Source: a virus (Duplodnaviria; Caudoviricetes). Taken from it: a stretch of DNA of 54,344 bases. Where the stretch lies: IMG/VR virus record IMGVR_UViG_3300023184_000163, positions 1 to 54,344 of that record. One strand, 5' to 3'. How positions within the stretch are numbered: the stretch's first letter is position 1; each line of letters opens with the position of its first letter. The position numbers were made by a program, and so were the translations under genes. Positions 10,019 to 39,300 of the stretch are shown one piece after another. The notes beneath the pieces were generated by a model, which searched no databases, was not told the DNA's origin, and saw only the letters and a program-made list of their open reading frames with translations.

Positions 10019-10768
10019 ATGGAAAAATTAAATACACAAACTCTTAAGACAGCATTAAAGAGTATAGGAATCTACAAAATTAAAATTAATGATAAAGAGT
10101 ACATTGGTAGCTCTTGTAATATTGGTCATAGGTTAAAACACCATTTGTGGTCTCTTGAAAATTTAAAACATCATAACAGAACAATGCAAAACTTATATAA
10201 TAAGTATGGTAAAGAAGAAATTTATTTTACTGTTATAGAAGAATGTTCTGATGATATTTTAATAGAAAGAGAAGCTTGCTACATTAGCACACTTAATCCC
10301 TATATAAATCATATACTAGATCCACAAACTCTAGTTAGGGATGATGTATGTAAACAAAGAATGAGTGAAGCTAAGAAAAAATCTTATGCTAATGGTTTAA
10401 AACCTCCTAACCGTAAAGCAGTACATAAGTACTCACTTGATAAAGGTGATTACTTAGAAAGCTTTGAATCTATTACAGCTGCTGCTAGGTCTATTAATGC
10501 TAAAAGCATTAGTGGTATAAGAGATTCTTGTATGAAAAAAGTTTTTTCTGCAGGAGGATTTATATGGTCTTTTACTTATAATATAAAAATATTACATAGA
10601 CCAAAACAATATAAGCTAGAACCAATATTACAATATACTGATGATAATATTTTTATCAAAAAATGGGAGTCTATAACTCAAGCAACTAAAGAACTTAGTG
10701 TCTCTAATATTAGTAGAGCAATAGCTAAAGATCTAACTGCTGGTGGTTATAGGTGGAAAAAAGCATAA
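10019..10768 (+). CDS. Intron-encoded GIY-YIG homing endonuclease with NUMOD-type DNA-binding repeats
   Basis: GIYKIKINDKEYIG...R...E...N catalytic domain, KQRMSEAKK segment, and two NUMOD1-like repeats (FESITAAAR...AGGFIW; WESITQATK...AGGYRW). Confidence 0.93.
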   Translation: MEKLNTQTLKTALKSIGIYKIKINDKEYIGSSCNIGHRLKHHLWSLENLKHHNRTMQNLYNKYGKEEIYFTVIEECSDDILIEREACYISTLNPYINHILDPQTLVRDDVCKQRMSEAKKKSYANGLKPPNRKAVHKYSLDKGDYLESFESITAAARSINAKSISGIRDSCMKKVFSAGGFIWSFTYNIKILHRPKQYKLEPILQYTDDNIFIKKWESITQATKELSVSNISRAIAKDLTAGGYRWKKA

Positions 10769-18318: not shown

Positions 18319-18352
18319 AGGGAAGAGCAGAAATGCTTTTCCCTTTTTTTTT
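18319..18352 (+). terminator. Terminator at the convergence of the two gene blocks
   Basis: AGGGAAGAGCA-GAAA-TGCTTTTCCCT plus a T run that abuts the stop codon of the opposing giant gene. Confidence 0.88.
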
Positions 18353-21300: not shown

Positions 21301-24300
21301 ATTTTTTCAACACCTAATGCTTTTGGATCAGGTTGTCCTTGTTCATCTTTATATGTATATATTAAATCACCAATTTCTTTATAATTAGTACTTACATTAA
21401 AGTCAGATTCAGAAACTTTCATTTTTTCTTGTAGTTCTGACAATCTTGTTAATAATTCTGATCTTTTTTCATAATATTTAGGATCATAAACAAGTTTGGT
21501 GTTCATTTTAATCCAATCTTTTAATTTTACATTGTACTCATCACTATTAATTTTTACACCCTGTGTTATTAATTGATTTATAAATTCATTATATCCTTTT
21601 TGTAATGAACCAGGAACAGCAACATATTCATTAAAGTCTTTAGTTGCATTTCTATGTTCTCTTAAAAGTAAAGCTTTACTAAGATCATAAATTTCATTTG
21701 CTTCATCATCTATTTTAGGAGTACCATCTTCATAATACAATGAATAAAGAGATTGATACTTATGCCATGCTGCATCAGTAATAGTATAACTTTCAAATCT
21801 TTCTAATTCATTATGCAATTTATTTGATTCTGCATTAAACTCATCTAAAGCTAATTTTCTATCTAACCAAGCTAACTGACCTATTTTTGAGTCTTCAAAA
21901 ATTTTATCTTTTTCATAGTATTCAGGAACAAATTCTCTGTTCATGTAATCTTCATTAAAAGTTTTTAATTCTAACTCAGCTTTTTTAAGTTTATCAACAT
22001 CACCATCTTTACGTGCTTCATCTACATTAAACTCTAAGTTATCTAGATCATATCTCCAACCATTTCCAAAAGCATTTAAAAAAGTATAAACTTCTCTTTT
22101 TTCCATCTTATTAGTTTCTTTATTAAAAAAAGAAACACTATCTAAGTCAGAAACTAAATTTAACATGTCTCTTGAATTCCATTTACTAAATTCACTAATT
22201 TTTGGTAAAAGATTTTGTAATTTATTTCTAAAAGATAAAGATGCTTTCCACATTCTCTGTTCTGCTTCTTTTTTCTGATTATCAATATAAATTGCTAATG
22301 AACCTACTATAGGACTATTACTAGAACTATAACTTTCCATAAATCTATTTAAAATAGAAACATCTTTGTATTTACCTTCTAATGTTTTAATTATTGTATC
22401 TTTATTAATTATAAAATAATTAAATCTATCAATTATTTCTTTAATATATTTTTGCTCAACACCTTTATTTGATAATTCTTCTAAATCTTTTTCAGTAATA
22501 GTATTATTTTTAACTTTATTAAAAAAATCATTAAATTCTGATTCTGTTAATTTACCATCAATAGCTGATAATAAATCTTTATTTGCTTGAACAGTAACAA
22601 AATCACTCATATATTTTGTATTTTCTACAAAAAAGTTAATTGAGTTAATTTTAGAAATTTCTACTGCAATTTTTTCCCCACGTATAATATTTAAATTTAT
22701 TTGACTTAATAATTGTGAAAATGGATTTGTATTATCTACTACAAAATCTTTAGTAAGAATACCATCAATATCTGATAATGATTGATACCATCTAGCTAAT
22801 GCATTTCTATATAAACTTAATAAGTAAATATCATCTCTAGAACCAAAATTTTTCTTTTTCTTAAGTTTTTCTAAATTTTCTATAATTATATTAGTAACAT
22901 TATTAGTTACTTCTAAAGAGTTAACTAAAGATAAAGCACGGTTATTTAAATCTTTTAATCTTGCAGCTTCAGCATCTAATGCATTATCTAATATAACATC
23001 AATAGAATTATTATTAGACTTTAAAATAGTTTGATATGTTCTTAATGCTTTTTGTACAGCTGGAATTAATTTATTTGTTCCTTTTTCTATAAAACTTTCT
23101 AAAACTATTTTTTTAGTATTTTCATTAGTTCTATGTTTTCGAGCCATTTCTAATATTGATTGATTAGCAGCATACTGAGTATTAATAGACTCAGTAATTG
23201 CTTTTGTAGATGCACTATCAATTAATACTTTAGCTTTTTCTGTTTCATTTCTTAAAAACATTGCAACATCTTCTTCTTTAATGTTACTGGATTCAAAAAC
23301 AAAATCTTTTTCTAAAAGCATATCTGCTAATTTTTCTATAGATGTATTTACATTTAAATCTTTTATAACTTTTTCATTACCAAATACTTTTTTTAATAAT
23401 AATTTTATTTGATATAATAAATTTTTAATAAAACTATCAAAACCTTTAGTTTCAATTTTATTTGCTAATATATTAGCAGCATGTGTTTGTAATGACCAAG
23501 CTAAAGCTTCTTCTTTAAACTTAATTGAATCTTTTTCAAGTTCTGGATACATTTCAGTTACATAATCAACAATTTGTTGACCTTCTGTAGTTGATTCTAA
23601 TAGATTAAATAAATTATTAAATAGTTCAGAATTAGATACAGCAATTCCTTGTAACAGAGGGTGTGAAAATTCATGCAATACTGTATTAATTGATACATTA
23701 TCCCCTACAGTATAAATTGTACCTGCAAAATAAAATCCAGGTTCACCTTGATATGGAACTTTAGTTTTTTTTAATAAATCAATTGCTTGTTCTTGAGTTA
23801 TGTTTGCATAATTTACTTTAAGACCTAATGATAATCTTTGACTTAAAACAGATACTATTTCTTTTGCTCTTGCATTTTGTATAGTAGATAAATCAAATTC
23901 AAAAGAAGGTTGAATTAAATTTTCTGAATATCTTTGAAATACTATATTATCAAGATCTTTATTAGGTTCAATAGTTAATTCATTCCAAGTATTACCATAC
24001 TCATCTGTAATTTTTATTATACGTTCTTTACCAAATTGTTTTTTAAGAATATTAAATAAAGTGTTTTCATAAAAAGTATAAATAGGTCTAAGCTTAGCAA
24101 AACCACCTTCTTCTAAATCTTTTAATTCTTGCTTATACGTATTTAAACGATTTTGTAAATCATTAATAGCTTCTCTAACTCCTTTTTCATAAACATCTTT
24201 TGAATAAAAAGGTTTTACTTCTTCATATGTTTGAGTTTGTAATTTTAATATTTGTTCTTCACTTCCTTTTATAATATCTAAAAGATTTTGTTTTCTTCCT

Positions 24301-25727
24301 TGTAATGTTTGATGCCCTTCTACTTTACTAGCTGTATCACCAGTAGGAAATAATACTTTTTCATATCCTTTCTTAGCACTATCTTGCATGATAGATTTAA
24401 CAAAGAATGTTACCCAGTTATTGTCTTTGTTTAGTAGTTGTAAGAATTGATTTTGTTTATTATTTTCTTTACTAAGATAACTTTCTGCTATATTTTTTTC
24501 ATCTTTTGTTAATTCTTCTCCTTGCTCATATCTAAATATTATATCTTCAATATTAACAGGAGGGACCTCTCTAGTTAATAATTGTTTATCCCTACTTTTT
24601 TGAAACAAATCAGATTGTACTTCTAGTATTCTACGGGATCTAGAATTAATCCCTATAGAATCTTCTGCTTCTTTCTTTGTGTTATAGATTCCTAGTTTTG
24701 TCTTTGTGCGTCTATCGGTCACATGGAATTGATTGTTATACTCAAATATTTCTTGTCCTCCTATATATTTAGTAGGGTAACTACTTCTATCTTCTATAAA
24801 ATTATAGTAAGTATACAAACTATTCTGTACATGTTTTGTAGAAACATATTCATCACTTCTAAACCACCCTATACCCTGGTCTGTAGCAAACTGAGCATGT
24901 CCTTTAATAGAAGGAGTAATTTCTGGTGTAGCTATTTCTTGTTCTGTATAATTAGTACCACCTGGAACTGATAGATTAGAATAGTATTGAGTATTTCTAT
25001 CTCCTAAATTTTCAGTTTTTTTATATTGTTCAGTAGCTAAATTATATTCTTCTTTAGTTATTACATTACCATTTTTTCTATAAGTATCTATTTTAGAATA
25101 ATCATCACCATTTAAAGTAAATCTATCATATCCTACATTAGCACTTTCAATAGATTCAGTAGCAATATTAATATCAACAGTATAACTATAAGCAGCAGCA
25201 ATAGCTACAGCTATTTCATCTTTAGTCATTCCTGGTTTAGCAACTTCTTTAAATAGTTCAAGTTGTTGATTAGATACTCCTTGTTTTTGAAGATCATTTA
25301 ACCAACCTTGAAGTTTAGAAGTTTCAAAATTACTTCTATTTATTTTACCTAATGTTTCAACTATCTTTAATGAATAATTAACACTTGGTGTTTTCATAAA
25401 CATAGGTTGATCTGTATCAGGTCTATTTTCATATTCATTTACAAGAATATCTAACTGAGTAAATAATGCTTCATTAGGGATTGCTCTATATACATTATAT
25501 GTAGAGTCTCTATAATATGGAGTATCTTTTAAATAAATAGATTTTTGTTCCCCAGCAGAAAATAATTTTTCATCACCAGTTTCTAAATTATATTTAGTTT
25601 TAGCATACTCAGTTAAAGTATTATTAAGCTCATTAAATAATGATAAATCAAGAATTTTTCTTATATCATCGGTAGCACCATTTTTAATTAAATAGTCAAG
25701 TGAATTAATTTTTGAATTACAGCTCAT
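18351..25727 (-). CDS. Giant virion/ejection protein (2458 aa) with polyvalent-protein-type N-terminal domain, zincin-like HExxH and LysM
   Basis: PGGTNYTE...GH...GWFRSD...ILEVQSDLFQ domain; TVLHEFSH...EEALA; LysM HTFVKGETLALIAKQYNVTEEELIAKN...GDEIII; hydrophobic segment near the C-terminus; adjacent to the RNAP gene. Confidence 0.8.
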   Translation of the reverse strand: MSCNSKINSLDYLIKNGATDDIRKILDLSLFNELNNTLTEYAKTKYNLETGDEKLFSAGEQKSIYLKDTPYYRDSTYNVYRAIPNEALFTQLDILVNEYENRPDTDQPMFMKTPSVNYSLKIVETLGKINRSNFETSKLQGWLNDLQKQGVSNQQLELFKEVAKPGMTKDEIAVAIAAAYSYTVDINIATESIESANVGYDRFTLNGDDYSKIDTYRKNGNVITKEEYNLATEQYKKTENLGDRNTQYYSNLSVPGGTNYTEQEIATPEITPSIKGHAQFATDQGIGWFRSDEYVSTKHVQNSLYTYYNFIEDRSSYPTKYIGGQEIFEYNNQFHVTDRRTKTKLGIYNTKKEAEDSIGINSRSRRILEVQSDLFQKSRDKQLLTREVPPVNIEDIIFRYEQGEELTKDEKNIAESYLSKENNKQNQFLQLLNKDNNWVTFFVKSIMQDSAKKGYEKVLFPTGDTASKVEGHQTLQGRKQNLLDIIKGSEEQILKLQTQTYEEVKPFYSKDVYEKGVREAINDLQNRLNTYKQELKDLEEGGFAKLRPIYTFYENTLFNILKKQFGKERIIKITDEYGNTWNELTIEPNKDLDNIVFQRYSENLIQPSFEFDLSTIQNARAKEIVSVLSQRLSLGLKVNYANITQEQAIDLLKKTKVPYQGEPGFYFAGTIYTVGDNVSINTVLHEFSHPLLQGIAVSNSELFNNLFNLLESTTEGQQIVDYVTEMYPELEKDSIKFKEEALAWSLQTHAANILANKIETKGFDSFIKNLLYQIKLLLKKVFGNEKVIKDLNVNTSIEKLADMLLEKDFVFESSNIKEEDVAMFLRNETEKAKVLIDSASTKAITESINTQYAANQSILEMARKHRTNENTKKIVLESFIEKGTNKLIPAVQKALRTYQTILKSNNNSIDVILDNALDAEAARLKDLNNRALSLVNSLEVTNNVTNIIIENLEKLKKKKNFGSRDDIYLLSLYRNALARWYQSLSDIDGILTKDFVVDNTNPFSQLLSQINLNIIRGEKIAVEISKINSINFFVENTKYMSDFVTVQANKDLLSAIDGKLTESEFNDFFNKVKNNTITEKDLEELSNKGVEQKYIKEIIDRFNYFIINKDTIIKTLEGKYKDVSILNRFMESYSSSNSPIVGSLAIYIDNQKKEAEQRMWKASLSFRNKLQNLLPKISEFSKWNSRDMLNLVSDLDSVSFFNKETNKMEKREVYTFLNAFGNGWRYDLDNLEFNVDEARKDGDVDKLKKAELELKTFNEDYMNREFVPEYYEKDKIFEDSKIGQLAWLDRKLALDEFNAESNKLHNELERFESYTITDAAWHKYQSLYSLYYEDGTPKIDDEANEIYDLSKALLLREHRNATKDFNEYVAVPGSLQKGYNEFINQLITQGVKINSDEYNVKLKDWIKMNTKLVYDPKYYEKRSELLTRLSELQEKMKVSESDFNVSTNYKEIGDLIYTYKDEQGQPDPKALGVEKIKKIKDLQQKINDYRFNNKNVGGLSKTESEELINYVLSAKKRTLTKDEEKRYLYLLEKSSGKGLTIEETVELNAIYNELGDSSATLPTDYYMDELNFRLSKYLNTQILSDDVDAFINSDEFYDIVANDESFQEWFILNHVTKKTFDITKKDYVNKYQRTVVNNITVPSDPSLIKTTKILNEATGEEILIMGVPNIRHSVFNVKDKYRTLPYNLTEEDKNTYIGKIIDNKGNFLPKMYDGTSKGAKTDKYMNKKYADLKRSNSATFELLNAITEYHLQGQENKANVTKLYLDVPRYVIDSKLDVLQSGNASERYNQIKANTTEFFKQMFGQSKVNVENNFNYNPENNLVNTDAFGQKMNYIPVSGLYNLEPNVVSPDVFKSLMRYSLSLETYSVLEENLPLMKSLIETLSSSEAQPKAENEFRRDIYNAYGVLENVTKKGSENNVLGQVKSLFEREFYGVHQSETSENYPKITALLNGMQKISAMASLAINIPSDLKNKYGAMVQLIIEASGNEHIGLKDLAFGRSWAFKSMINWSSKKGIYAVGPPAFTTQLIEMFDPAFRTKDNMGRSVSRSLYKDLIDGEWLYMHRKFGEMEVALSLFGSFLNAQKVDMTMPDGTVQLIRYVDAWENNSEGIITLKKGIHPKWNNTHVYHTFVKGETLALIAKQYNVTEEELIAKNKISSVLELAEGDEIIIAKAEGFNMFRNQVQGTSRALFGAYDSMGQPEGNKYTLYRLYMFMRKWFTPMFINRFGSEVIWEKGKLTPKFMPRYDWALGKTVKGYYLTAFSAMWEMIKSRGQKAKYLRADEKIALKKLAAESLFITSFALLTALLFGYDEDDEDKWKKIAERSEAFGTKGYDTQGYMINQTLLLMQGVNAETTAFIPLPKIMGLNFGLDDYGKMLTSTSSVFANTLLLYGEIAANIFNGLTGEDAAKYQRDAGPYPWEEEGDYKLINNILKTIGFTGSTGDPETGIKNLANSSSKLGR

Positions 25728-25732
25728 TATTT

Positions 25733-28700
25733 TTATATTTTACAAGTAAAAGGATCTTCTTCTAAACCAAAGTTATCTAAAATTTCTTGATCTGAGATGC
25801 CTTGTCTATTTTTTACTAATTTTTGCAAGTCTTTATACATTGTAGAACCTGGATTTAAAAAACCAATAGGTTGTTGATATAGTTCTTTTGAAAGATGTAT
25901 AAATAATTCTTTAGGCATTTCAGTAACACTTCCATAACCTGTACTTAAAAATGCAACAGGTAAACCATCTTTAACTAATGTATTAATTAACTCAAATTGT
26001 TCATTATAATAATTAATAATATTGTTATAAAAATCAGATGGTAAATCTTTCATGTTATCAGTCATATTATTCTGTGCTACTGGTAATCCAATAGACATTT
26101 CTGATGCAATATTTTTAATAACTGATTTACCGGTTGCTTGTGCCTTATTTTGTAAAATAGCAATTGAAGTTGGGTAAACAAAAGTAACATCAGTATTTTT
26201 AGATAAAACATTATTATAGTTAGTTGGAATAAAATTAATATCATCCATTATAAAAACATTAGGATTTTTTGTTTCCATTAAACCATATCTTTCATTTGTT
26301 TTAACAACATCTAAATCTTCTTCAGTACTAACAGAAGGTAAAATGTCAGACTTACTTGTTTTTTTCATATTAGATAAATCATCAAGATTAAAGTCAAGTA
26401 AATAATTTTGGAATCTACCTTTATCAGTTTTAGATCTATTATTTTCTCTAATAAATCTAGAATATAACATATCTAAAAATTTATTTGCTAAAGTATTATC
26501 TTCTAAAACATTGATTAATTTTTTAGATTCATCATTTACAAGATTTATAAAATCATTATACTGTACAATATTTGTAAAATTAAATTTAGTTTTATTAATA
26601 CCTGTTTGCATAAATGCATAAAAAGGTAACTTTGAAAAGAAATCACTTATCATAATATTTTCTGCATCATTGTCTACTTTTTTAATACCAGGATTAGAAA
26701 GATCTAATAAATTTTTATGATATAAATTAGATATATCATTAGTAAAATCTTTTTCAGCTACATATAAATTAAACATTGTTTTTGCAGCATTAGGTTCATT
26801 TTTAATCTTATTTATAATTGCATAATTACCTTGCAATTCAGTTTTATATTTATTAATAATATTATTAAATTTAACAGCAAATGCTTCTTTAGGATCACTA
26901 AACATGTGATATGGATTTAATGTATTTTCTAAAGCTTTATTTGTAATAAATTTTTCATAAGTAAATCTTTCTGCTTTTGTACCGGAAAACTGTGGATACA
27001 TTTCTTTTATAGTTTTTAATTCAGAATTAAAAGAATATAATTTTTTTATATCAGACATAGAATATATTGATCTTAAGTATTCTCTTTCAGCTACAAATTT
27101 TATATATTCTCCTTCATTAGATTTTTTATCTAAACGGAAATGAGAAATTGATAAAGGATACAAACCTCTTTTAAAATAACTATCTTTTTGTTGTGAATTG
27201 ATATCAAAAACATTTCTAGTAAAGTCATCTTTTATTGCTTTTTCATCTACATATAAAACTTTATTACCTTTTTTATCTTCTTTTACATATGCACCAAATT
27301 TTAATTCATCAACTAAACTAACTGGTATTGTTTTATTAAGAGTATATGATTTATAAGTGTCACTTAATTTATATTTTCTTGCAGCATTTTGGAATAAAAA
27401 ACTAATCATAGCATTTCTAAATGAATTTTTAAATGCAGTTGTATTATTTTTACCAAATGTTTTAAGAGTATCTTTTCTTATTTGACTATTTTTAGTTATT
27501 AAATAACTTGATACAGCATCATTATATCTTAATGGAAATATTAAACTATTAATTGCAATAGATAGTTTACCCATAAAAAATGAACTTATAATACTACTTT
27601 TTTGCATAGCATTTACTAAATCAGGTTCTAACTTACTATTAAATTCTAATAATTCTAAATTTGCTTCTGTTTCTTCAACTTCACTACCTGAGACTTTTAA
27701 TGATGTGTCAGGATTAGATGCCATTTTTAATTCAGTTAAACCTGTAATTTGTTGTTCAATTTGTAAAAAATGTAAAAACATTGCTAATGAAAATTCAGTA
27801 GATATCTTATCAGGATTTGTTTTAGAATCTTTAATAAGATTATACATTTCCTTTTCAGTAAAATAATCATTATTTCTATTTTCAAATACAGCATTTGCTA
27901 ACTCAATTCCTTTGTTATATCTTCTTTCATTAGTTGATAATGATTTTGCAGTTTCTGGTCCAAAATATTTTTTAATAACATTAGAAGCAGAATTAAACTT
28001 AATTAAATTAGGATCTCCTGGAGATTTTCCTAATACATCAGCATAAGTTGATTTTCCTAAATTTTGTTCTTTTACATACTCTCTTACTAAAGGTTGTGAA
28101 ACAAAATAAATAGCTTCTTTAACCGGTACACCTGTTTTAATTAAATATAATAATAAAGGTGCAACTTCATAGTTACCTTGAATAAAAAATATCCAAGCAT
28201 CTTTTTCAACGTCAACCCAACCATTCATCATTTGTGAAAAAACATCTGAGATTTTATTTTTTTTATCAACGTCATATTTATTAGATATAGAAATTAATTT
28301 TACACCATCTTTAAATACCTTATTATGTCTTAACCATAACATTGATTTTCTTTCTTTCTCATTATGTAAAAATGTATCTGGCATAGCAGCACCACCATTA
28401 GTTTCTATAGAATTTATTATAGTATGAAATTTATTTTCTATTGCTCCTAATCCTAGTGTTCTTTTACCTACAACATTTGATTCATGTTTATATATATTAT
28501 ACAATGCTTCAAATACTCTTGTTGGGCTTATAGAAGATTTTTTTGAACCATCTTTATTTTTTTGTTTAACACTTTTATTAAGTTTATCAGAAGATCTATT
28601 TATATACGGATTATAATCCATTACATATTGTGATAAATCATCAGCAATATCTTTTAATAAATATGTTCCATTAGGAGTTATAAGAGATATATAATTTTGT

Positions 28701-31700
28701 GGTAATTCTAAAATTCCACGGACACTATCTATTAAATTATTTTGTAATGATTTTTTTTGCATATTTAATGCAAATGCTTTGTCTTCTTGTGATACTGTAG
28801 GATCTGCTAAGTATTCTTTAAGTTTATTAAAAGATTTACTATCATTATCTGAAGTAAACATTTGTTCAGGTAATGTACCGTCAGCATTTAAATTTGCCAT
28901 ATATAATGTTAACTTATCAATGTCAAAGTCAGCTCCTGATTTAGCAACTATTTCTGAAGGAGGAATAATAATATTACCGGCTTGTGCAGGTAAAAAATGA
29001 TAAACTTCCATAAACTCCATAGAGTTTAAACCCTGTACTGGTATTCTAACACCAACAATAGTAACTGCTTTTCTATTTTGACCATCATTTAAATTTAACC
29101 ACTCATTATTCTTAATAAGTTCATTTAATTTATCAAGAGTTTTAATTTTATTTCCATCAAGATCATTAAGATTAAGTAAGTTTTCATAATCACCTTGTAT
29201 AGCAATCATTATTTTCATTGCTGCAGTTTTACCATCTTTTTGTTTATGATAAGTTGGTAAAAAATTAGACCCTACATATTTTTTTATATCTTCATCAGAA
29301 CCTAATCTTAATTTAGGTTTTTTAAATGTATTTGTATAAAATGCAGCTGAAACTTGTACTAAAGGTTCTCCATTTATTTGTTGCTTTATAACTCTTTTAT
29401 TAATAATTGACATTATTAATTTTTCAATTTTAGCAGCTTCAGGATGAAGAGATAAGTCAAACTTTAATTGACCTGAATCTAAAACATCAATAAAATCTAT
29501 AAGATGATCTCCTATGACATCATCAATTTCTAAGTTATCTCTTATTAGGTTAGCTAATTTTTCTAAACTATCACTAGACTTAGGTGAATAATTACCGTTG
29601 TTTTCTTCAAAACCTATTTCATTTAATAAATCTAATTTTAAAGTTTCAGTATAATCATTTACATCATTTAAATACTTTTTTACTGCAGGATTTGTAATCT
29701 TATCTTCATTTGTAGTATCTATTATACCTTTTTCATACAAACCTTCTAAAATAATAGCTCTTAATTGAGTTGAAAATATAGAACTTTTTTTGTATGAAGA
29801 ATTTATTTCAGTTTGATTTTTTAAATATTCTGCAAAAATTGTATTTTCAGTAAAAATTACATCTTTATTAAAAGAACCATCTTCATTTATAACTACATCA
29901 CCTTTACCAATATGAGATACTTTAGAACCTGATTCAAATAGTACATAATCTATTCCTTGTTTCATCATAGCATCATGTAACATATCTTGATATCCATTTT
30001 CACTTGATAAATTTGGAATAAGAGGTGATAAAGAAAATTTATGAAAAGATGTAATTGGTAATATTTCAGTTTTAATATTTCCAAAATACTGTAATTTGTA
30101 AGGAGGAAAATATTGTATTACATCTTCTACAGATAAAGAGTCTCCATTTACAATTTTTTTATATAATAACTCTTGATTATCACTCCAGTTACCTTCTAAT
30201 TCTTTTAACATACGATAACTTTCTAAACTGATGTGACCTTGACCATCACCTTCTTTCATGCCTAAATATTCACTTAATGTTTTTTTAGCAATTTCAGCAG
30301 CATTAACATTATCTCCTAATCTTTTTTTAATAGATTCAGTTAATTCTTTTAAATACTCTTTATAATATACAGATTCTTTTATTTCTTTTTCTTTTATAAC
30401 AGCTGTTTTTAATGTACCATCATAATTTTTAATTTTATAATTTTTTTTATTAGCATATAATCTTGGGAAAAAAGATTTATCATTTATATAAAATTGTGCT
30501 TGAATATCAGATCTAAAACCTAGACCACCAGATGCTAAACCAGCATTTCTTTTATGAAACTCTTCTTTATCATGGTTATACTGTACTAAATCACCATAGG
30601 CTAATATAATAGTCTCGTATTTATGTATCCATGAATTATAAGTATAAGCTTTTATTAATACTTCATCTACTTGAAGTTTGTTTAACCCTTGCTCAAAACC
30701 TTTTTCATATAAAGTTTGATCTATAAATCTAGCTGACTCAAGTTTATTTAAATTTAAAGCAGTTTCTTTATTAAAATAATTTAAAATATCTTTTTTAATT
30801 TCTTTTTTTAAATCATAATTTTCTTCTCTTTCTAAATATTCTATTAAATTTTCTTTTATTTTATATAATTTTTCTTTAGTTTCTTCTGTTAAAACATCAT
30901 CAAATGCTGTAAAAACTGATCCAGCCATAACAACAGTACCATTTTGTTTTTCAACTTCTCTACTGTATCCTGCCCAATCAGACATTACATCTATATTATC
31001 ATTAAATCTATTTATTCTTTCTAATTCACCGGCTAAATAACCTAACATAATATAAAAGCCTTCAGTTTCACCTTCTCCACTATTTTTAGGTTTAAAAGAC
31101 TCAATGTCTATATATAAATGATCATCAGATTTATTTGGATATGATTCTATTTTTTGTGAAGATAAAGACATAGCAGTTTGTTTAGAAGCATGTCTCATAA
31201 ACTCTTCAACACCACTTAATAACATTGTATGTAATTCTTGTAAAAACTTACTTGTTCCATCTAAAGCTGCAGTTACTTCACCAGTATACTCATTTTTTTC
31301 AGTATCAATTAATTGTGTTCCGGCAACATTATTTAATGTTAATTTTACATCTACAAATTCTGAACCTTTTTTAACTTTTCTTTTAAGTCCATAATTATCA
31401 GCTTCTATATCATCTAAATAAAAAATAGAATTTAATAATTGTGAATATTTTGAATGAGGATTGTTTTCATTTGACAACCAACGCATGTGTTTATATTTCC
31501 CATTAGGATCAGCTTCTTGTCTTGTAAGTTCTTGAAAACTATTAGCACTATTAATAGATGTAATTACTCTTGTAATAGTATTATCAACTATTTGTTCCCA
31601 TAATCTATTTCCATCAGGGGATAAAACACTAAAATTTGAAAAACCATCAGACCATTGAACTTGTAATTCAGCTAATAATTTTATACTATTATTAACATCA

Positions 31701-34700
31701 TTTTTTTTAGCATTAACTGGTACTAATTCTTTTGGTAAACCTTTTTGTAAATATTCTAATGGATTTTTTTTAAATTTTTGAGAAGCAGCAATTTTACTAA
31801 TATCAGTAGATAAACCTGCATTATGAACAATTTTAACATTTTCTAAGATTAAATCTAATTTAAACTGTTGACGTATTGCTAAAGAATTATTAAATAAACT
31901 ATTTAATTCAGGACTTGTATTATCCATTTCAATTCCAAATACTTTTAAAAAATCTCTAGATTTTTCAGTTTTAAAAACTCCGTTTCTATCACTAAAAGTT
32001 TTTATAATTTTATCAGTATTTAAAAAATTTACACCATCTGCATCTACTTCTATATATGGATTTACTTCAACTGATGCAGATATAAAGTTAGATTTCCAAT
32101 CATTTATAACAGGATATATTGCAAGACTAGCATCTACAACTAATGTATCATATGATGCAATTTCATCTTGAGTAGTTCTACCTTCTTCATCATATTTTCT
32201 TCTTTGAGTAATATTTTTATTAATATTAAACTGTATATATTTAACTCTTGGTTTTTTTAAATCTTTAAAAAAATTAGTTTCAAGAGAAAACTGTAATTTA
32301 TCATTTAATTTTAATTGACTTGGAGGTCTTAAAATATCTAAAAGTTGAATAAACTCAGGATAATTATCTGAAGCATAAGCAATTCTATTATACATATCTT
32401 CATAATCAAAAGAACCTTCAGTTATTTTAGATAGTTTATTCCATATTATATTTAAGTCTTCTAATTGTGGAGTTCCAAAATCATCTAATACTTCTATTAT
32501 AGCACCATCTTCAGTTTTTTGAATTTGATTAATATTTGAAAGCAACATTAATGTTGAAGGAGTTGCAAGATTTTTAGGATTGATAACATTTCCTTTATAA
32601 TCTTGTAAAATTCTTGTATTTTCTAAATCATCTGGATCTTCAAGTAAAACTTCTTGAATAATTTTAAATCTAGATTTTTTTATGTTATAAGCTAATACAT
32701 TATCTTTTTCTTTTCCATTTAATGTTTTAGATATATCTCCAAAATTTTCTAATGCTTTATTTAATAAAACTATATTATTAAATATATTTTCATTTTTAAT
32801 TAAACTTTCAGTTTTATCATCTTCAACTGAATCTACAAGAGAAGTTAAATACTCTAATTGCAATTGTATTCTATCTTTAATAGAATTAAAAGTACTTTCT
32901 TGAAGAACAGGGTCTGAAAATAATCTAATTACACCTGTACTTGATTCTTCATTTGCATTATACTCAGCTATTTCTAATCCTATAAAATTATCAATTGTAT
33001 TATTAATTTTATCTGACTCATCAATAGTAAAATTATTATTTATAGTTTTAAGTCTATTAAGTTTAGAAAACATTATGTTATCCATACTTGGTTTTAAATC
33101 TAATATTTCTCCTTTATAAAGTTGATCAAAATAATTTTTAATATTAGCAATATCTCTTGGTCTAATCATGTCTTGTTGAGTAATTTTACCAAACATTACA
33201 CGTAAAAATTCTTTAATTTTTTTAAATATTTTTCCAATAAAACCAGTATATAAAGTTTCATCTTTCATAAAACTTCTAAAATCTTCAGCTATTATTTCTT
33301 CTATATCTAAATAATCTAATTCTGACCATTTTGGAATTTTTCTCATTTCCTCGTAAAGTCTTGTTTTTTCATCAAGAGTTAAGAACAACTGAGAAAAACC
33401 ATGCCATGCCTCATGATATAAATCAATTGGAGTTGCATTATTAGCTAAATTTAGTGTTATACCATGTTGTGACCATGTTGCAAATGCATTTGAGTTTATT
33501 ACTTCAGAAAGTTTTTCTACAGTGTCAAGGGGAATAAAACTATCTCCATTTTGTTTCTTTGCTTGAGATAAAAAACTTTTTTCCCACCATTCATATATAG
33601 AATCTCTTTGTGCTTTTGTTGTAAATAATTTTTCAAATAAACCTGTTATACCTCTTTCATAATTAATAACTCTTGTTAAAGGTTTATTATTATTATTAAA
33701 TAAATTACGTAATCTATTTGCTAGATCATCAGATGGTTTACCATTTAATTTACTATCATTTTGTTTTTGTGTTTGACCTGATTTTTTTGCATAAACTTTT
33801 TTAGTTGTTTTTTTAGCAAAAGATGTTTTAGTAAAAGATGTTTTAGTAAAAGGTTTTTTAGTTTTTGATTTAGTTTCTGCTACAGCATCTCCAAATCTTT
33901 CTTTAAATTCATTTTTATCTGAAACAACCCATTGACCATTTCTACCAGCTTTATAAATTTTTGTAAATTTCCAACCTGATGGTACGGTAACCTCAACACC
34001 TATACCTAATTTTTTAGCAGCTTTAATAAAAGCTTCAGATACACCTGTTTCACCAGTTGTAACAATTTGAGAAATTGTTCCTTCTAAATCCGGGGAATTA
34101 ACAATACCTTCTAATATACTATACATATATTTATCTATATCAGATTGTGAAAAACCTTTTTTGTATAGTTCAACAATGTTATTTCCTGTAATATTTATTT
34201 TATCTTTTTTAAATCTATTTAATTGCTTTACTAGATTATTAACAACACTATTTAGATTAGGAACTGTATTACTTTTTCTATTTTTTCCAGATAAAGCTAA
34301 AGCAATATATTCTTTTTTATTTGTTGCTTTTGCAATTTTAGCATCACCTGTAATAAAATCAACACCAATATTAAAAGTTATATCTGAATTATTAATATTT
34401 TCTTTTATTTGAAATGCTGAAGATAATTTTTTAATATTATAAATAACATTACCTGGTTCAACAACTATATTTGTTGCATCATCTATATCATTTTTTTCTT
34501 TAGCTTTTTTTGTTTTTGCTTGTACTTGATTAGTAAAAATATTATATTTTGAAGATGTTCCCGCAGGAGTTATTTCAGTAGGTACTAAAAATGACAAATA
34601 AGAATTACCATTTAAAAAATATGCACCAGATTCTGGACTAAATTCAATTTTAATAAAAGGATATATAAATTCAAAATAATTTTTAGAAACTGCAACTATT

Positions 34701-36346
34701 TTATTATCTTTAATAACATAATCTGAAAAATTTTCTTCCATTATATTATTCATAGAAAAATTTAAATTAGCTGGATACACATTAGTTCCAACTTCAACTG
34801 CATTTAATAAATGTTTACTTATTAAATCTTTTGCATTTGGTAAACTTAAATCAACATTTTCACCTTTAATTTTAACTACTAATGTTGTTACGCCATTTAT
34901 TGAAGGTGTATCTATTTCAATATTATTTTTTATTTGATCTGTGTTATAAATTTTTACATTATCACCTAAAAATATTTCTGCATACTTTCTTCTTTGTGCA
35001 GGAGTTAATTCATCACCACGGTATTTTAATTTAGTAGTTAATATATCTGCTATCTTATCAGCTAACTCTTTATTAATATCTCCTCTTTGTAATTTAATAG
35101 TATGATTTATTTCATTATCTCCTATATTTTCAGTAAGTTGCATTTCAACAATACCTCTTTTTTTACCGGCTATATAAGGTTGATTTATTTGATCAAAAGT
35201 TATATTTGTTTCTGAAATAGGAACAAATATTCTAGGACTAAATCCATAACTACCACCAGTAATTTTAAGAACAACTACTTCTTCAGGATTATTTTTAATA
35301 TACTCATGTAAAGTATATAATCTATTTAACTTATCTTTTTGAATTCTTTTAACATTACTAATTTTCTTTTTAATTGTATCTTTTGACATACCAAAAGGTT
35401 CTGTTTCTTTATACAATTTATTTTCAGCATCTACAATGTCAACAGGATCAACTAAACTATACTTATAACCTGATCTATTAGTTAAAGCTAATTTTCCTTC
35501 ATCTAGTACCACATCTCTTATTGCTTGATATACTAGTCTACCTTCATCAGGATCATTAGTAATTTTACCATCTTCTGTAAAATAAATTAAATTACCTTCT
35601 ATATCAGTAATAACATTCATAATACCATTATACTCAGGATTTTTTCTTAAAAACTCAACATCATCAGAAACTAAAAAAGATGTACCATCTGATTTAGTTG
35701 GAAAATTATTTACAAGAAAAGGTCTTTGAGCAAGAGAAACATTATCATAAATTATTTCATTTTGATCAGCAGGTTTATTTTTATTTAAAGTAATAATGTT
35801 TTTAATAACTAAAGCAAACATTTTTTTCTCAGGATCTTGTACATCCTGTTCATCATCATTTGGACTTTTTGTTTTTGAATAATTAATTGTATTAGTTAAT
35901 GGATTATCAACTTTACTTTTTTTCTCAACATTACTAATTTTAGATTCTGATTTTGGATCTTCAATTATAACATCTTGTGATTTTATATTTTTTTGTATTA
36001 TCTTTTGTTTTTGTTCTTTTATGCTAACTTTTTTAGGTGCAAAAAAACTTTTAACATTTTTTAATTCTTCAAATTCAACACTTCGGTTGTAAATAGAATT
36101 AAAATCAAAATTATTTTTTACAAGTTTACTTTTTACAGCTTTTTGATTAGTAACTAAAGTAAATATATCAGGAACAGCCTGTGCATAAAGCAAAGCTTTA
36201 GCAGTATCTTCAGAAGATTTTAAAGCTAAGTCATAAAAAAATTTAATAAAATCATCTACATTAATAATATCATTACTTTTTTGTAACTTAAAATAAATTA
36301 ATTTATATACATCACTTATTTGCTCTTTGTTTAATGCACATGCCAT
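25733..36346 (-). CDS. Virion-type single-chain two-barrel RNA polymerase (phi14:2 gp66 / crAss-like), 3537 aa
   Basis: RIPVQGLNSM followed by AKSGADFDIDKL (DxDxD at 28916-28930), DGQGH, KRNAG, STQLR and VDVEKD; also a HEAWH...EEIIAE zincin motif. Confidence 0.92.
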   Translation of the reverse strand: MACALNKEQISDVYKLIYFKLQKSNDIINVDDFIKFFYDLALKSSEDTAKALLYAQAVPDIFTLVTNQKAVKSKLVKNNFDFNSIYNRSVEFEELKNVKSFFAPKKVSIKEQKQKIIQKNIKSQDVIIEDPKSESKISNVEKKSKVDNPLTNTINYSKTKSPNDDEQDVQDPEKKMFALVIKNIITLNKNKPADQNEIIYDNVSLAQRPFLVNNFPTKSDGTSFLVSDDVEFLRKNPEYNGIMNVITDIEGNLIYFTEDGKITNDPDEGRLVYQAIRDVVLDEGKLALTNRSGYKYSLVDPVDIVDAENKLYKETEPFGMSKDTIKKKISNVKRIQKDKLNRLYTLHEYIKNNPEEVVVLKITGGSYGFSPRIFVPISETNITFDQINQPYIAGKKRGIVEMQLTENIGDNEINHTIKLQRGDINKELADKIADILTTKLKYRGDELTPAQRRKYAEIFLGDNVKIYNTDQIKNNIEIDTPSINGVTTLVVKIKGENVDLSLPNAKDLISKHLLNAVEVGTNVYPANLNFSMNNIMEENFSDYVIKDNKIVAVSKNYFEFIYPFIKIEFSPESGAYFLNGNSYLSFLVPTEITPAGTSSKYNIFTNQVQAKTKKAKEKNDIDDATNIVVEPGNVIYNIKKLSSAFQIKENINNSDITFNIGVDFITGDAKIAKATNKKEYIALALSGKNRKSNTVPNLNSVVNNLVKQLNRFKKDKINITGNNIVELYKKGFSQSDIDKYMYSILEGIVNSPDLEGTISQIVTTGETGVSEAFIKAAKKLGIGVEVTVPSGWKFTKIYKAGRNGQWVVSDKNEFKERFGDAVAETKSKTKKPFTKTSFTKTSFAKKTTKKVYAKKSGQTQKQNDSKLNGKPSDDLANRLRNLFNNNNKPLTRVINYERGITGLFEKLFTTKAQRDSIYEWWEKSFLSQAKKQNGDSFIPLDTVEKLSEVINSNAFATWSQHGITLNLANNATPIDLYHEAWHGFSQLFLTLDEKTRLYEEMRKIPKWSELDYLDIEEIIAEDFRSFMKDETLYTGFIGKIFKKIKEFLRVMFGKITQQDMIRPRDIANIKNYFDQLYKGEILDLKPSMDNIMFSKLNRLKTINNNFTIDESDKINNTIDNFIGLEIAEYNANEESSTGVIRLFSDPVLQESTFNSIKDRIQLQLEYLTSLVDSVEDDKTESLIKNENIFNNIVLLNKALENFGDISKTLNGKEKDNVLAYNIKKSRFKIIQEVLLEDPDDLENTRILQDYKGNVINPKNLATPSTLMLLSNINQIQKTEDGAIIEVLDDFGTPQLEDLNIIWNKLSKITEGSFDYEDMYNRIAYASDNYPEFIQLLDILRPPSQLKLNDKLQFSLETNFFKDLKKPRVKYIQFNINKNITQRRKYDEEGRTTQDEIASYDTLVVDASLAIYPVINDWKSNFISASVEVNPYIEVDADGVNFLNTDKIIKTFSDRNGVFKTEKSRDFLKVFGIEMDNTSPELNSLFNNSLAIRQQFKLDLILENVKIVHNAGLSTDISKIAASQKFKKNPLEYLQKGLPKELVPVNAKKNDVNNSIKLLAELQVQWSDGFSNFSVLSPDGNRLWEQIVDNTITRVITSINSANSFQELTRQEADPNGKYKHMRWLSNENNPHSKYSQLLNSIFYLDDIEADNYGLKRKVKKGSEFVDVKLTLNNVAGTQLIDTEKNEYTGEVTAALDGTSKFLQELHTMLLSGVEEFMRHASKQTAMSLSSQKIESYPNKSDDHLYIDIESFKPKNSGEGETEGFYIMLGYLAGELERINRFNDNIDVMSDWAGYSREVEKQNGTVVMAGSVFTAFDDVLTEETKEKLYKIKENLIEYLEREENYDLKKEIKKDILNYFNKETALNLNKLESARFIDQTLYEKGFEQGLNKLQVDEVLIKAYTYNSWIHKYETIILAYGDLVQYNHDKEEFHKRNAGLASGGLGFRSDIQAQFYINDKSFFPRLYANKKNYKIKNYDGTLKTAVIKEKEIKESVYYKEYLKELTESIKKRLGDNVNAAEIAKKTLSEYLGMKEGDGQGHISLESYRMLKELEGNWSDNQELLYKKIVNGDSLSVEDVIQYFPPYKLQYFGNIKTEILPITSFHKFSLSPLIPNLSSENGYQDMLHDAMMKQGIDYVLFESGSKVSHIGKGDVVINEDGSFNKDVIFTENTIFAEYLKNQTEINSSYKKSSIFSTQLRAIILEGLYEKGIIDTTNEDKITNPAVKKYLNDVNDYTETLKLDLLNEIGFEENNGNYSPKSSDSLEKLANLIRDNLEIDDVIGDHLIDFIDVLDSGQLKFDLSLHPEAAKIEKLIMSIINKRVIKQQINGEPLVQVSAAFYTNTFKKPKLRLGSDEDIKKYVGSNFLPTYHKQKDGKTAAMKIMIAIQGDYENLLNLNDLDGNKIKTLDKLNELIKNNEWLNLNDGQNRKAVTIVGVRIPVQGLNSMEFMEVYHFLPAQAGNIIIPPSEIVAKSGADFDIDKLTLYMANLNADGTLPEQMFTSDNDSKSFNKLKEYLADPTVSQEDKAFALNMQKKSLQNNLIDSVRGILELPQNYISLITPNGTYLLKDIADDLSQYVMDYNPYINRSSDKLNKSVKQKNKDGSKKSSISPTRVFEALYNIYKHESNVVGKRTLGLGAIENKFHTIINSIETNGGAAMPDTFLHNEKERKSMLWLRHNKVFKDGVKLISISNKYDVDKKNKISDVFSQMMNGWVDVEKDAWIFFIQGNYEVAPLLLYLIKTGVPVKEAIYFVSQPLVREYVKEQNLGKSTYADVLGKSPGDPNLIKFNSASNVIKKYFGPETAKSLSTNERRYNKGIELANAVFENRNNDYFTEKEMYNLIKDSKTNPDKISTEFSLAMFLHFLQIEQQITGLTELKMASNPDTSLKVSGSEVEETEANLELLEFNSKLEPDLVNAMQKSSIISSFFMGKLSIAINSLIFPLRYNDAVSSYLITKNSQIRKDTLKTFGKNNTTAFKNSFRNAMISFLFQNAARKYKLSDTYKSYTLNKTIPVSLVDELKFGAYVKEDKKGNKVLYVDEKAIKDDFTRNVFDINSQQKDSYFKRGLYPLSISHFRLDKKSNEGEYIKFVAEREYLRSIYSMSDIKKLYSFNSELKTIKEMYPQFSGTKAERFTYEKFITNKALENTLNPYHMFSDPKEAFAVKFNNIINKYKTELQGNYAIINKIKNEPNAAKTMFNLYVAEKDFTNDISNLYHKNLLDLSNPGIKKVDNDAENIMISDFFSKLPFYAFMQTGINKTKFNFTNIVQYNDFINLVNDESKKLINVLEDNTLANKFLDMLYSRFIRENNRSKTDKGRFQNYLLDFNLDDLSNMKKTSKSDILPSVSTEEDLDVVKTNERYGLMETKNPNVFIMDDINFIPTNYNNVLSKNTDVTFVYPTSIAILQNKAQATGKSVIKNIASEMSIGLPVAQNNMTDNMKDLPSDFYNNIINYYNEQFELINTLVKDGLPVAFLSTGYGSVTEMPKELFIHLSKELYQQPIGFLNPGSTMYKDLQKLVKNRQGISDQEILDNFGLEEDPFTCKI
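33811..33862. repeat. 15-bp tandem repeat (~3.5 copies) in a basic linker of the RNAP protein
   Basis: ttttagcaaaagatg / ttttagtaaaagatg / ttttagtaaaaggtt / ttttagt, encoding TKKPF-TKTSF-TKTSF-AK. Confidence 0.8.
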
Positions 36347-36348
36347 TT

Positions 36349-39300
36349 TTAACAGATTTTAGTATTATTATTAAAGCTTTTTAATAAATCATCTTCTGAT
36401 ACATTATTGTTTTCAAGATAATCTACTATTTTAGATTGTGCATCAGTATCTTTTGAAAATTCATCATATATCATTTGAGAATCTTCAGCATTTTGAATGT
36501 CTTCTTTAGTTAATTCAGTATCATTTTCTAATTCAGCAGCTTCTTCATTCATTTTTATAAAATTTAATTTAAGATCTGTTTGATTAATGTCACCTTTTTC
36601 ACCAGTTATTACATCTTCTACTGTAACATAAGTTTCAGTAACATTTGTAACTTTAACAGGGTTAATATTTGTATTATCAAAGATAGTATTTTTAGGTAAC
36701 AAAAGCATGTTTACATCTAGATTTTCAATAGACATATCTACGTTTAAGTTATTTAATCTATTGTTATAAACATCATGTAATTCATCAGTATTTATACTTA
36801 ATGGATCAGTTTCAATTTGTGTTAGAGCTTCTATATATTTAGTTCTAATTGTATCTATAGTAGCTTTATTAATTGCATCAATAAACTTTTTACCTTTTTT
36901 AGTAGTCTCTATAACATTTTCTTTTTCAGTTGGAATGTTTCCTAATAAAAATGAATTAGATACTAATGTTTCAGTTATTCTTTGTTTTGCTTCAGCATTT
37001 GTAACATTTCTTGTTTTTTGTCCAGAAACTCCTTTTGTTTTTCTACTTCTAGACTTTTCATTCTCAGGTACACTAGTCCTATCGGATACTGCTTGTTGTC
37101 CAAAGACTTTTCCTGATTCTTCTTGGGAACGTTTACTGATTTTTCCATTTTTAGTTAAAGTTATAAGTTGTAAATCATTTATTAAATTATTAATAGCTAT
37201 TATTTGGTTATCTACATCAGTAGAAATATTACCTCTTGTTGTTACTTGAGAAGCTAATTCAGTTAAATCTTCTAAAACAGTATTAGACCAAGTTTTAATA
37301 GCTTTAAGCTCACTATCAGTAATACTAGGAACACCTTCATCAAAAAGTTTATTTAATGCATCAGGATAGTTCTTAGCTAAAATTTCATCTAATTTAATTG
37401 CTAGTCCAGGTGAGTAAGATAATCTAGAAATTTCTTCTAAATCTTTCTTTCTATCATCATTAGTTTTACCTGCATATAATTTAAAATTTTGAGGAGAACT
37501 ATTAATTGCAAAAATGTAATCATTTATATTACCTCCACGCATAGTTCTTTGTGGATTATTATTACTTAATTCTTTAAGAGTTTGCCGTATACCCTTTAAG
37601 TCCATTGTTAATTTACCTATAGTATTAACATTACTATTAAATTTCTCAGAAGGTTCATCTGTAGAAGTGGTAAAAGATTTATTTTCTTTTTGTAATTGTT
37701 GTATAGTATTAAGTATAGTATTTTCTTCTTTTTCTAATTTTGCAATTTCTGCATCATTAACATCATATGTAAGAGAAGCAATAATATTTGGATCAGTACC
37801 TGAGTAGTTAACTCTATATAAAACATCATTAATTAATACAGTATTTTTATTTAAAATTCTAGTTGTATATGAAACATTATTAATAATAATAGTTTCAAAT
37901 ACTTTTTTAGTTGTTTTAACTTGAGATAAACCAACATTATTTAAACTTAACTTTGGATTAGTTACTGCAATTGACTCATAATATAAATCTATAATTTTAG
38001 ATTTAGTTGGTACTTCTACTATATCAGCTTTAGTATCTGTAGTAGAAGTAAGTTGTTTTTCAAGGTCAACAATTTGTTGTTTTATATTATTAGCTTTATC
38101 AACATTTCCAAATTCACCCTCTTCAGTTTTTAAATTTTCTTTTAAAGTATTAATAGCAATTTTAAGAGTATCTTGATCTGCAGTAAAATCTTGTTTGGTC
38201 AAGTCTTCTGAAACAGTTGTTTTTGTTTCATATGTTTTTATAGGATCAATTTGTATACTAAAGGTTCCATTGTCATTAAAAATTAATGTGCCAATTTCAC
38301 CATTGTATAAAACTTTTTTTCCAATGTTATCTTTTAAAGATGTAGATGCACCAATTTCTTCTACAAGTTCATCTGTTGTTTCTATTGTGTCAACATCACT
38401 TATAACAGGAGTTTTTAAAGGAACAATTGATTCAACTTCATTAAAATAATCTAATTCATATGTAGTTAAATCAGAATCTGATACAATATCAGAAAGTTTT
38501 GCACTTAATAAATTACCTTCTCTATCATAGTTAACTTCAATAGGAAGTAAAGAAATTCTTTCTGGCATTATACCAGTCATATTATAAAATAAATTTCTAT
38601 AAATAGATTGTTGAATCCTAAAATATAACTTTTTGCTATACTTACTTGTATCTGTTAATTTAATAACGTCTGCATTACTATTTATTTCAGCTTCAGTTTT
38701 TCCTTCATTATTTAATTTAGTTTTTAATTTTTCTAAATTATTTTCAGCAATAATAGATTTCCAACTTTTTCCTAATAAAGCTTTTACATCTATAATACTA
38801 AACTTACCTTCAGCAGATATTGCAATTAAATCTGTTTCTCCAACTAATCCATTTTCAAATAGTGACTTATCAAATAACATATCACTTGCACTAACAATCA
38901 TATATTTACCATCAATAACACCATCTCTAAAATTAGTTATTATTCCATGGTTACCAAATAAACTATCAAATGCACTTTGAGACATTTTTTCAGGTTTTAC
39001 AATTTTTTTAAATTGTAAACCTTCACGAGTTAAAAAATCTTTTATTAAAACATCAAGCATGTTTCCTACATCTGCTGCTTCTTGATAAGCTGCTCTTTGA
39101 ATTACAGCAATTACATTTTCTCTTGAAAAATCTTTAGTTAACTCTTTTTCAATTTTTTCAAACTTAATAGGGTTTAATGTTAATGAATCTTTACTTCTAA
39201 AAACATTTGATTTAGCAGAATTTAAAACTTTAAGTTTAAAAGCTTGAATAAAAATATCTAATTTATCTTCATCTTTAATACTGGCATCTGCCATTATTGC

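Follow-up and report, generated by a model that had tools for sequence, protein, structure and literature searches.

Crassviruses are the most abundant phages of the human gut. For crAss001, mass spectrometry (MS) identifies gp47, gp49, and gp50 as virion cargo, and these proteins are thought to cross the tail partly unfolded (PMC10172136); how several hundred kilodaltons of cargo are stored and delivered through a narrow tail is, according to two recent structural papers, an open question (PMC10172136; PMC13434306). The cargo proteins of phage phi14:2 are annotated as detected in virions by MS (record NC_021806), and packaging of RNA polymerase (RNAP) in the virion, together with RNAP activity on early promoters, is known, as far as the sources cited here go, for phi14:2 and crAss001 only. 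Here we analyze a gene trio in a 54,344-base linear stretch of viral DNA, IMG/VR virus record IMGVR_UViG_3300023184_000163 (GC content ~23–31%; CheckV completeness 45%), hereafter the window. Six minus-strand open reading frames (ORFs) of more than 1000 amino acids (aa) lie between positions 18351 and 53753 of the window, and three adjacent members of this set encode proteins A, B, and C, which have cysteine (Cys) residues at the facing termini of each A-B-C junction, while the outer ends of the trio are Cys-free, a pattern that recurs across the loci described below. The features that define the pattern are as follows.

43920–47210, minus strand: protein U, 1096 aa, upstream neighbour of A; no Cys by script count
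36349–43905, minus strand: protein A, 2518 aa, first member of the proposed cargo chain; sole Cys is the last residue
36352–36354, minus strand: codon TGT for Cys2518 of A (NTKIC), located by script
25733–36346, minus strand: protein B, 3537 aa, by homology a crAss-type virion RNAP; only Cys3 and Cys3535
36338–36340, minus strand: codon TGT for Cys3 of B (MAC), located by script
25742–25744, minus strand: codon TGT for Cys3535 of B (PFTCKI), located by script
18351–25727, minus strand: protein C, 2458 aa, last member of the proposed chain; sole Cys is residue 3
25719–25721, minus strand: codon TGT for Cys3 of C (MSC), located by script

The trio comprises 8513 aa and, by script count, contains four Cys in total. 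At the window's own rate (41 Cys in the 4553 residues of 15 plus-strand ORFs of at least 150 aa; that is, 0.90%), ~77 Cys would be expected, and the Poisson probability of finding four or fewer is 8 × 10−28. The probability that four randomly placed Cys would fall one each within three residues of the four inner termini is 4 × 10−13. Across the loci analyzed below, Cys frequency is 0.083% in ORFs of at least 1500 aa vs. 1.06% in ORFs of 150–800 aa; the Cys frequency of the trio is far below that of the rest of the proteome, as in the Cys-suppressed ejection proteins of Schitoviridae. An initial annotation of this DNA had reported the number and positions of Cys in the 2518-, 3537-, and 2458-aa proteins, the coordinates of the four codons, the spacings of 2 nucleotides (nt) between A and B and 5 nt between B and C, and the absence of Cys from the outer ends of the trio and from the 1096-aa upstream protein. 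Our scripts return the same values throughout, and the annotation's statement that random placement is very unlikely now has a computed figure behind it.

Homology assigns B as a distant crAss-like virion RNAP, in agreement with the label that the 3537-aa protein had been given at the outset. B matches the RNAP genes of crAss001 and phi14:2 at 23–25% identity (tblastn E 2e-16 to 3e-16; blastp E 3e-22 for phi14:2 gp66 and 8e-23 for crAss001 gp50) and also matches RNAP genes of uncultured crAss-like phages, with 22–25% identity for the whole set. B contains the DFDID catalytic motif of two-barrel RNAP, and an alignment of 25 sequences shows no variation at D2473, F2474, D2475, and D2477 of the surrounding SGSDFDIDK. 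Residues 1–100 of C match residues 1–99 of phi14:2 gp65 (37% identity, E 2e-12), and residues 1608–1796 of A match crAss001 gp47 (E 2e-8); BLAST does not directly match A to phi14:2 gp67 or C to crAss001 gp49. The gene order U-A-B-C is seen across 80 loci related to the window. Taken together, the matches and gene order show A, B, and C to be orthologous to phi14:2 gp67, gp66, and gp65 and to crAss001 gp47, gp50, and gp49, the crassvirus cargo trio, and the homology to the crAss001 cargo proteins indicates that the window trio is probably ejected through the tail. The phi14:2 and crAss001 trios resemble the window trio in homology and in Cys pattern, and the phi14:2 trio also resembles it in gene order; they differ from it in that the window proteins are ~1.4–1.7 times longer than their counterparts and only 23–25% identical in the core. 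Searches of PDB chains with A, B, and C (phmmer) returned nothing at E ≤ 0.01, and the link between B and a solved RNAP structure is thus invisible to this simpler type of search. PHROGs and Pfam searches of the six giant ORFs returned only a LysM domain in C and one unnamed PHROG in B. The domains and motifs of the trio are as follows.

33401–33415, minus strand: HEAWH, zincin-like HExxH motif toward the N-terminus of B, residues 978–982
28916–28930, minus strand: DFDID, catalytic motif of two-barrel RNAP, B residues 2473–2477
23661–23675, minus strand: HEFSH, second HExxH motif, C residues 685–689, a regular-expression match only
19221–19349, minus strand: LysM peptidoglycan-binding domain, C residues 2127–2169 (Pfam PF01476, 28.9 bits vs. 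a cut-off of 20.9)

H978, E979, and H982 of HEAWH are invariant in the same 25-sequence alignment, and an HExxH motif is present in phi14:2 gp65 too. The zincin-like module is in B in the window and in gp47, the counterpart of A, in crAss001; it may have a role in polyprotein cleavage or in cell-wall digestion.

The terminal Cys residues are conserved in orthologous trios of crAss-like phages, as the initial annotation had expected a tabulation to reveal. Among the best 120 of 506 B homologues (39–98% identity), 116 have both Cys3 and a Cys in the last three residues, with these two as the only Cys in 113; the four homologues lacking Cys3 are short or have N-termini that are unrelated. All 89 A homologues have a Cys within the last eight residues, which is the only Cys in 88. 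Among 120 listed of 405 C homologues, a Cys is present in the first 10 residues in 111, with no other Cys in 102, and the nine listed homologues that do not have it have divergent N-termini. A wider, word-index-free search with the core of B yielded 2107 relatives, from which 144 new representatives were taken from 50%-identity clusters; both terminal Cys are present in 118 of the 144, and 89 of those 118 have no Cys elsewhere. C3 and C3535 of B are invariant columns in the 25-sequence alignment, across 30 B proteins the C-terminal Cys is the one column of the final 250 residues that never varies, and across 30 C proteins the N-terminal Cys is the one such column of the first 300. The pattern extends to both cultured phages. 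In phi14:2, the sole Cys of gp67 is the last residue, gp66 has Cys3 and Cys2179 of 2180 residues, and gp65 has Cys3; in crAss001, the sole Cys of gp47 is at position −3, gp50 has Cys5, Cys1334, and a Cys at position −9, and gp49 has Cys5. Even in the gut-type loci L199, L203, and L204, in which B has 13–19 Cys, the terminal Cys are kept, and the 19-Cys B proteins of L199 and L203 still have Cys3 and a last-residue Cys.

The crAss001 gp47 gene is encoded on the strand opposite gp50, the C gene lies 0.7–1.8 kb from the B gene in L007, L054, L060, L062, and L063, yet the Cys residues are kept, and the terminal Cys codons across loci are of both types (334 TGT and 27 TGC). Because of these three observations, we place the signal in the protein and not in the gene-junction DNA, and we rule out a DNA-level junction or coupling signal.

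To define the relationship between facing termini, we analyzed 160 IMG/VR loci surrounding homologues of B, half of them (80) close to the window clade and the other 80 around phi14:2-like and gut clades, in which ORFs were called mechanically from the first ATG, a junction was defined as two consecutive same-strand ORFs of at least 500 aa, and Cys was scored within 10 residues of the facing ends. The 278 distinct junctions comprise 178 with Cys on both sides, 95 with Cys on neither side, and only 5 with Cys on one side. Much of the class with neither is contributed by the U/A junction, and the remainder includes upstream structural-gene junctions; because these junctions fall in that class, adjacency alone does not bring Cys. 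U-like ORFs (MATYLQ...) are free of Cys in related loci, and the U/A junction of the window has no Cys on either side; U is outside the proposed Cys-linked chain. In the 171 paired junctions with a stop codon at the end of both ORFs, the N-terminal Cys is residue 3 in 93, residue 4 in 24, residue 5 in 41, and residue 2, 6, or 7 in 13, and the C-terminal Cys is one of the last three residues in 133 and is never more than 10 residues from the end. We conclude that the Cys pattern is real, is far from chance, and holds across the order Crassvirales.

The initial annotation had predicted that the terminal pair would be lost where the genes are fused, and loss is what we find wherever A and B are fused (20 of 20). 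We compiled 131 distinct 5'-complete proteins with the RNAP catalytic motif; the distance from the protein start to the motif is 2785–3867 residues in 20 of these and 1272–2558 in the remaining 111. None of the 20, the fused A-B proteins, has a Cys among its first 12 residues, whereas every one of the 111 others does. A single Cys, at the C-terminal tip, is present in the fused proteins of L138 (5322 aa), L140 (4392 aa), L145 (3989 aa), L146 (3513 aa), and L174 (3890 aa), and in each of these five loci the protein after the fusion still starts with a Cys at residues 4–7. BLAST identifies an A-like N-terminal part joined to B in L138, L145, L146, L205, and L206. The representative P0425 reads as a fusion of a truncated A with B, with one Cys, the last residue, and its relatives at 31% identity are unfused. 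A FastTree phylogeny of the core requires six changes for the fused state, with at least five on well-supported branches, in a run for which the program warned of long branches. Fused 'polyprotein' forms are mentioned for some phages in the text of the phi14:2 preprint. The fused A-B forms have the same domain order as the separate genes of the window; the difference is that the window has a Cys pair where the fused forms have a peptide bond.

New break points, in turn, carry new pairs, as observed in L048, L174, and L132. The B of L048 consists of two pieces, with successive termini that read KPNCNI / MACIDV...ILKSIC / MLSCPI, whereas relatives have one B ending in ILKAIC; in the 655-aa piece, the final 120 residues correspond to the C-terminal module of B from L047, L051, and L057, where B is undivided. 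In L174, an additional 1167-aa protein lies between the fusion and C and has Cys4 and a Cys at position −2. L132 falls within a fused clade, but its break lies inside B; a Cys pair flanks this new break (NNKCGE / MAKCNP), whereas the old A/B site carries none. The position of the zincin-like module shifts relative to the break: in crAss001, the module (YHEAFH) occurs close to the C-terminus of gp47, the counterpart of A (residue 2157); in the window (HEAWH at 978) and in L158, it belongs to the N-terminal part of B; and in the fused forms of L145, L146, and L138, it is mid-protein.

These comparisons point to a physical connection between the facing termini. We consider it probable, with appreciable room for doubt, that A, B, and C are joined head to tail in the virion by a direct Cys-Cys link, yielding a 'virtual polyprotein'. 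The bond would run from the C-terminal-tip Cys of one protein to the Cys at residues 3–7 of the next, and the A-B-C chain would do the job of the peptide bond in lineages with fused genes. Bonding of the two Cys to each other would be the simplest account of facing pairs that follow break points, and a disulfide would be the simplest chemistry. With each Cys only a few residues away from a chain end, linkage would yield a product that is topologically a single thread, with stubs of at most ~9 residues; such a thread could pass a narrow tail partly unfolded, and an internal cross-link would give a loop or a branch. Tail constrictions in crAss001 are narrower than 50 Å (PMC10172136), and a thread with tiny stubs would fit passage through them. 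The bond would form in the assembled or released virion, would serve co-delivery or ordered ejection, and would be opened by reduction in the cytoplasm. Inter-subunit disulfides are reported in crAss001 virions (PMC10172136), and the termini of recombinant phi14:2 gp66 are not ordered in the crystal. The fullest form of the proposal, that is, a redox-cleavable thread of up to ~8500 residues that exits via the tail in fixed order and is cut by the reducing cytoplasm without a protease, with the Cys pair as a portable substitute for a peptide bond and with break points that could shift, arise, or be lost while the delivered chain stays the same, we put forward tentatively, as possible and not as probable. 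Of the initial annotation's proposal of head-to-tail joining, the coupling of facing termini thus has comparative support, and we infer, as it did, the disulfide, the ordering, and the cytoplasmic reduction.

Other explanations of the terminal Cys residues fare less well. The facing Cys could be joined by a bridge other than a disulfide, either a shared metal ion or another covalent bridge made during assembly; the pairing and break-point data do not tell a disulfide from such a bridge, and the assembly compartment is reducing, but there is one Cys per side, with no conserved His, Asp, or second Cys beside it, and ordinary disulfides are reported in crAss001 virions (PMC10172136), and we judge a bridge of this type to be unlikely; it would leave the logic of the virtual polyprotein intact and alter the chemistry alone. 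To a similarly small degree we credit the view that the partner of each terminal Cys is either the identical terminus in another copy of its own protein or a third virion protein (yielding A-A and C-C dimers, rings or polymers of B, or a tether to portal or capsid), or the variant in which B is cyclised and A is linked to C. The use of disulfides by crAss001 tail proteins (PMC10172136) favors bonding of these kinds, the disappearance of Cys from fused proteins could mean that internal cross-links are not tolerated, and the numbers of N- and C-terminal Cys also balance for an A-C link with cyclised B. However, homotypic or third-partner bonding gives no reason for the Cys-free outer ends (the N-terminus of A and the C-terminus of C) or for the facing pairs (178 both vs. 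5 single). Moreover, after A-B fusion, only the C-terminal Cys of B and the N-terminal Cys of C are left, as partners for each other alone, and new splits put Cys on two ends that formerly were peptide-bonded.

Capsid-targeting terminal peptides are known in other phages, and the terminal Cys could instead be part of short signals for procapsid packaging, acylation-type modification, or recognition by a processing enzyme, with no link between proteins. The tightly fixed N-terminal position (residue 3 in 93 of 171 junctions and residues 2–7 in all) fits a signal, whereas a signal has no need for facing pairs and would not explain why A has no N-terminal Cys and C no C-terminal Cys; furthermore, the flanking residues vary freely, with only the Cys invariant, and no lipobox or signal peptide precedes the Cys. 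We regard a signal without a link as improbable. The least credible account, to which we give almost no weight and which the comparative data contradict, invokes chance or phylogenetic inertia against a background poor in Cys. A low Cys content is general among ejected phage proteins (N4 and T7 proteins, below; PMC11445570), and related sequences inflate our counts; but the Cys are invariant at 28–55% overall identity while their surroundings change, are kept in the unpurged lineages L199 and L203 (19 Cys in B), and have been gained or lost with break points at least five times, and the chance figure computed above applies to the window alone. Head-to-tail joining of A, B, and C was open to refutation by two comparisons, conservation of the terminal Cys and loss of the pair on fusion, and the outcome of both supports it.

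Several observations and considerations weigh against head-to-tail joining, or narrow its base. Phage assembly takes place in the reducing cytoplasm. Phage N4 delivers a 3500-aa polymerase with no Cys, which argues that a link is no general requirement for delivery. The junctions are related by descent, and the 2 × 2 table of the 278 junctions overstates independence, its entries not being independent trials. No B-C fusion was found in the loci examined, and the B/C junction therefore stands without a fusion test; no triple A-B-C fusion was found in those loci. The N-terminal parts of the fused proteins of L140 and L174 have no BLAST match to A references, and the A-homology BLAST left out the 11 TAG-recoded loci, L188, and L195. 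Individual loci also depart from the pattern. In L129, A has its only Cys 32 residues before the C-terminus. A 1161-aa ORF without homology to B (L163:13194–16679) interrupts the B of L163 next to the catalytic region; the piece upstream of it has no C-terminal Cys, and the one downstream opens with MGC and ends in Cys. The 1161-aa ORF may be an intron-borne or mobile insertion. Splits without a pair occur in L031, L060, L156, L176, and perhaps L026, and 21 of the 144 representative B proteins have no N-terminal Cys.

Some of these exceptions can be traced. In L031, L060, and L176, the split is a frame change inside conserved sequence, and in L060 the true start, MVNCSL, is in the other frame; the break in L026 is probably similar. 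In L156, B is split at an A-rich tract, with the second frame open upstream, and an unrelated 573-aa ORF lies between B and C. We read the unpaired splits of L031, L060, L156, and L176, and perhaps that of L026, as apparent assembly frameshifts or slippage. An A-rich, lysine-rich tract occurs at the break in L060 and L156 only. Three of the 21 representatives without N-terminal Cys were followed individually: P0352 is a start-site miscall, P0425 reads as the A-B fusion described above, and P0372 was untraceable, a scan with P0372 giving no match. A scan of viral contigs with crAss001 gp50 returned only relatives at 96–100% identity. A predicted complex of the C-terminal 151 aa of B with the N-terminal 130 aa of C (30-row alignments) scored 0.32 vs. 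0.22 for the control and is not used as evidence.

The homologous loci provide several further observations. TAG read-through is needed for the long ORFs of L180, L181, L187, L189–L192, L196, L198, L200, and L201; these 11 loci have 17–66 in-frame TAG codons per giant gene, which is consistent with stop-codon recoding in gut-type crAss-like phages. In L199, L203, and L204, C has 3–10 Cys; that is, the purge is relaxed. L220:7386–26531 encodes a 6381-aa B with only two Cys (residue 5 and the last residue), and MSCPIR starts the next protein directly; this B holds a second polymerase-core-like segment, residues 5261–5904, which match residues 1873–2600 of the L214 B. Homologues of A, B, and C carry variable Pfam insertions (PF06414/PF13671 kinase-like, PF25176, PF12694, PF09397, PF00583 GNAT, and PF18760), and their lengths differ by more than 1000 aa; P0032, P0063, P0072, P0106, P0125, P0232, P0243, P0257, P0259, and others among them still have one or two Cys. 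The chain seems to be a carrier for swappable modules.

Elsewhere in the window, the plus-strand half encodes replication functions: Pfam analysis of the 23 ORFs of the first 18.3 kb, run for sulfhydryl oxidase, returned replication genes only. A search with the sulfhydryl oxidase family PF04777 gave no match in the ~45%-complete record and none in any control genome, and is therefore uninformative. The replication module includes two GIY-YIG endonuclease ORFs, at 6367–6792 (plus strand) and 10019–10768 (plus strand). At 47276–50674 (minus strand), just upstream of the Cys-free block, a structural gene encodes a 1132-aa protein in which 8 of 10 Cys are in four close pairs (791/793, 821/824, 835/837, and 854/856), which looks like a putative metal-binding cluster.

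The terminal Cys pairs appear to be undescribed. Full-text literature searches, the scope of which stops short of Yutin et al. 2018, the published Nature version of the phi14:2 work, and supplementary tables, found no description of them; word searches found neither 'cysteine' nor 'disulfide' in the phi14:2 preprint or in the 2026 N4 paper, and found, in the crAss001 atlas (PMC10172136), 'disulfide' only for tail and portal-vertex proteins and 'cysteine' nowhere. A conserved end-to-end link, if true, would explain a fixed cargo ratio, an ordered exit, and the occurrence of the same set as one to four genes. For annotators, the Cys rule offers a means to recognise chain members and to spot wrong starts and frameshifts in metagenomic crass-like genomes. 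The proposal is directly testable in two cultured phages.

Depletion of Cys from ejected proteins is already published for N4-like phages, Schitoviridae; crassviruses add the terminal pairs to it. The Schitoviridae ejection operon (gp50, gp51, and gp52 of N4; gp71, gp72, and gp73 of DEV) resembles the crassvirus trio in encoding a giant ejected virion RNAP with companions that are nearly Cys-free. It differs in that its RNAP belongs to an unrelated fold family, is one polypeptide and not three, and has no terminal Cys; gp50, gp51, and gp52 of N4 have no Cys and no terminal pairs. For Schitoviridae, PMC11445570 gives a Cys frequency of 0.00075% in gp71 homologues vs. 0.865% proteome-wide and cites passage through the periplasm as a rationale for the suppression. 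The initial annotation's further idea, that internal Cys are purged in order to avoid mispairing, is not needed in view of the Cys-free N4 proteins without pairs and of this periplasmic rationale. The gp14, gp15, and gp16 proteins of T7 resemble the crassvirus trio in being ejected through a short tail, and gp15 and gp16 have no Cys; the T7 core proteins have no head-to-tail pair, and gp14 has a single Cys at residue 2. Both gp14, annotated as internal core, and gp6.7, annotated as injected, have a single Cys each, at residue 2. In two-chain (AB) toxins, one inter-chain disulfide joins the chains and is reduced after translocation. AB toxins have no homology to the trio, and their chains arise by cleavage of one precursor; reduction of the phage proteins is a step that we infer. 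The logic would nevertheless be analogous: in AB toxins, a disulfide holds the chains together during membrane passage and the reducing cytosol frees them, much as the Cys pairs would hold A, B, and C together until the cytoplasm is reached.

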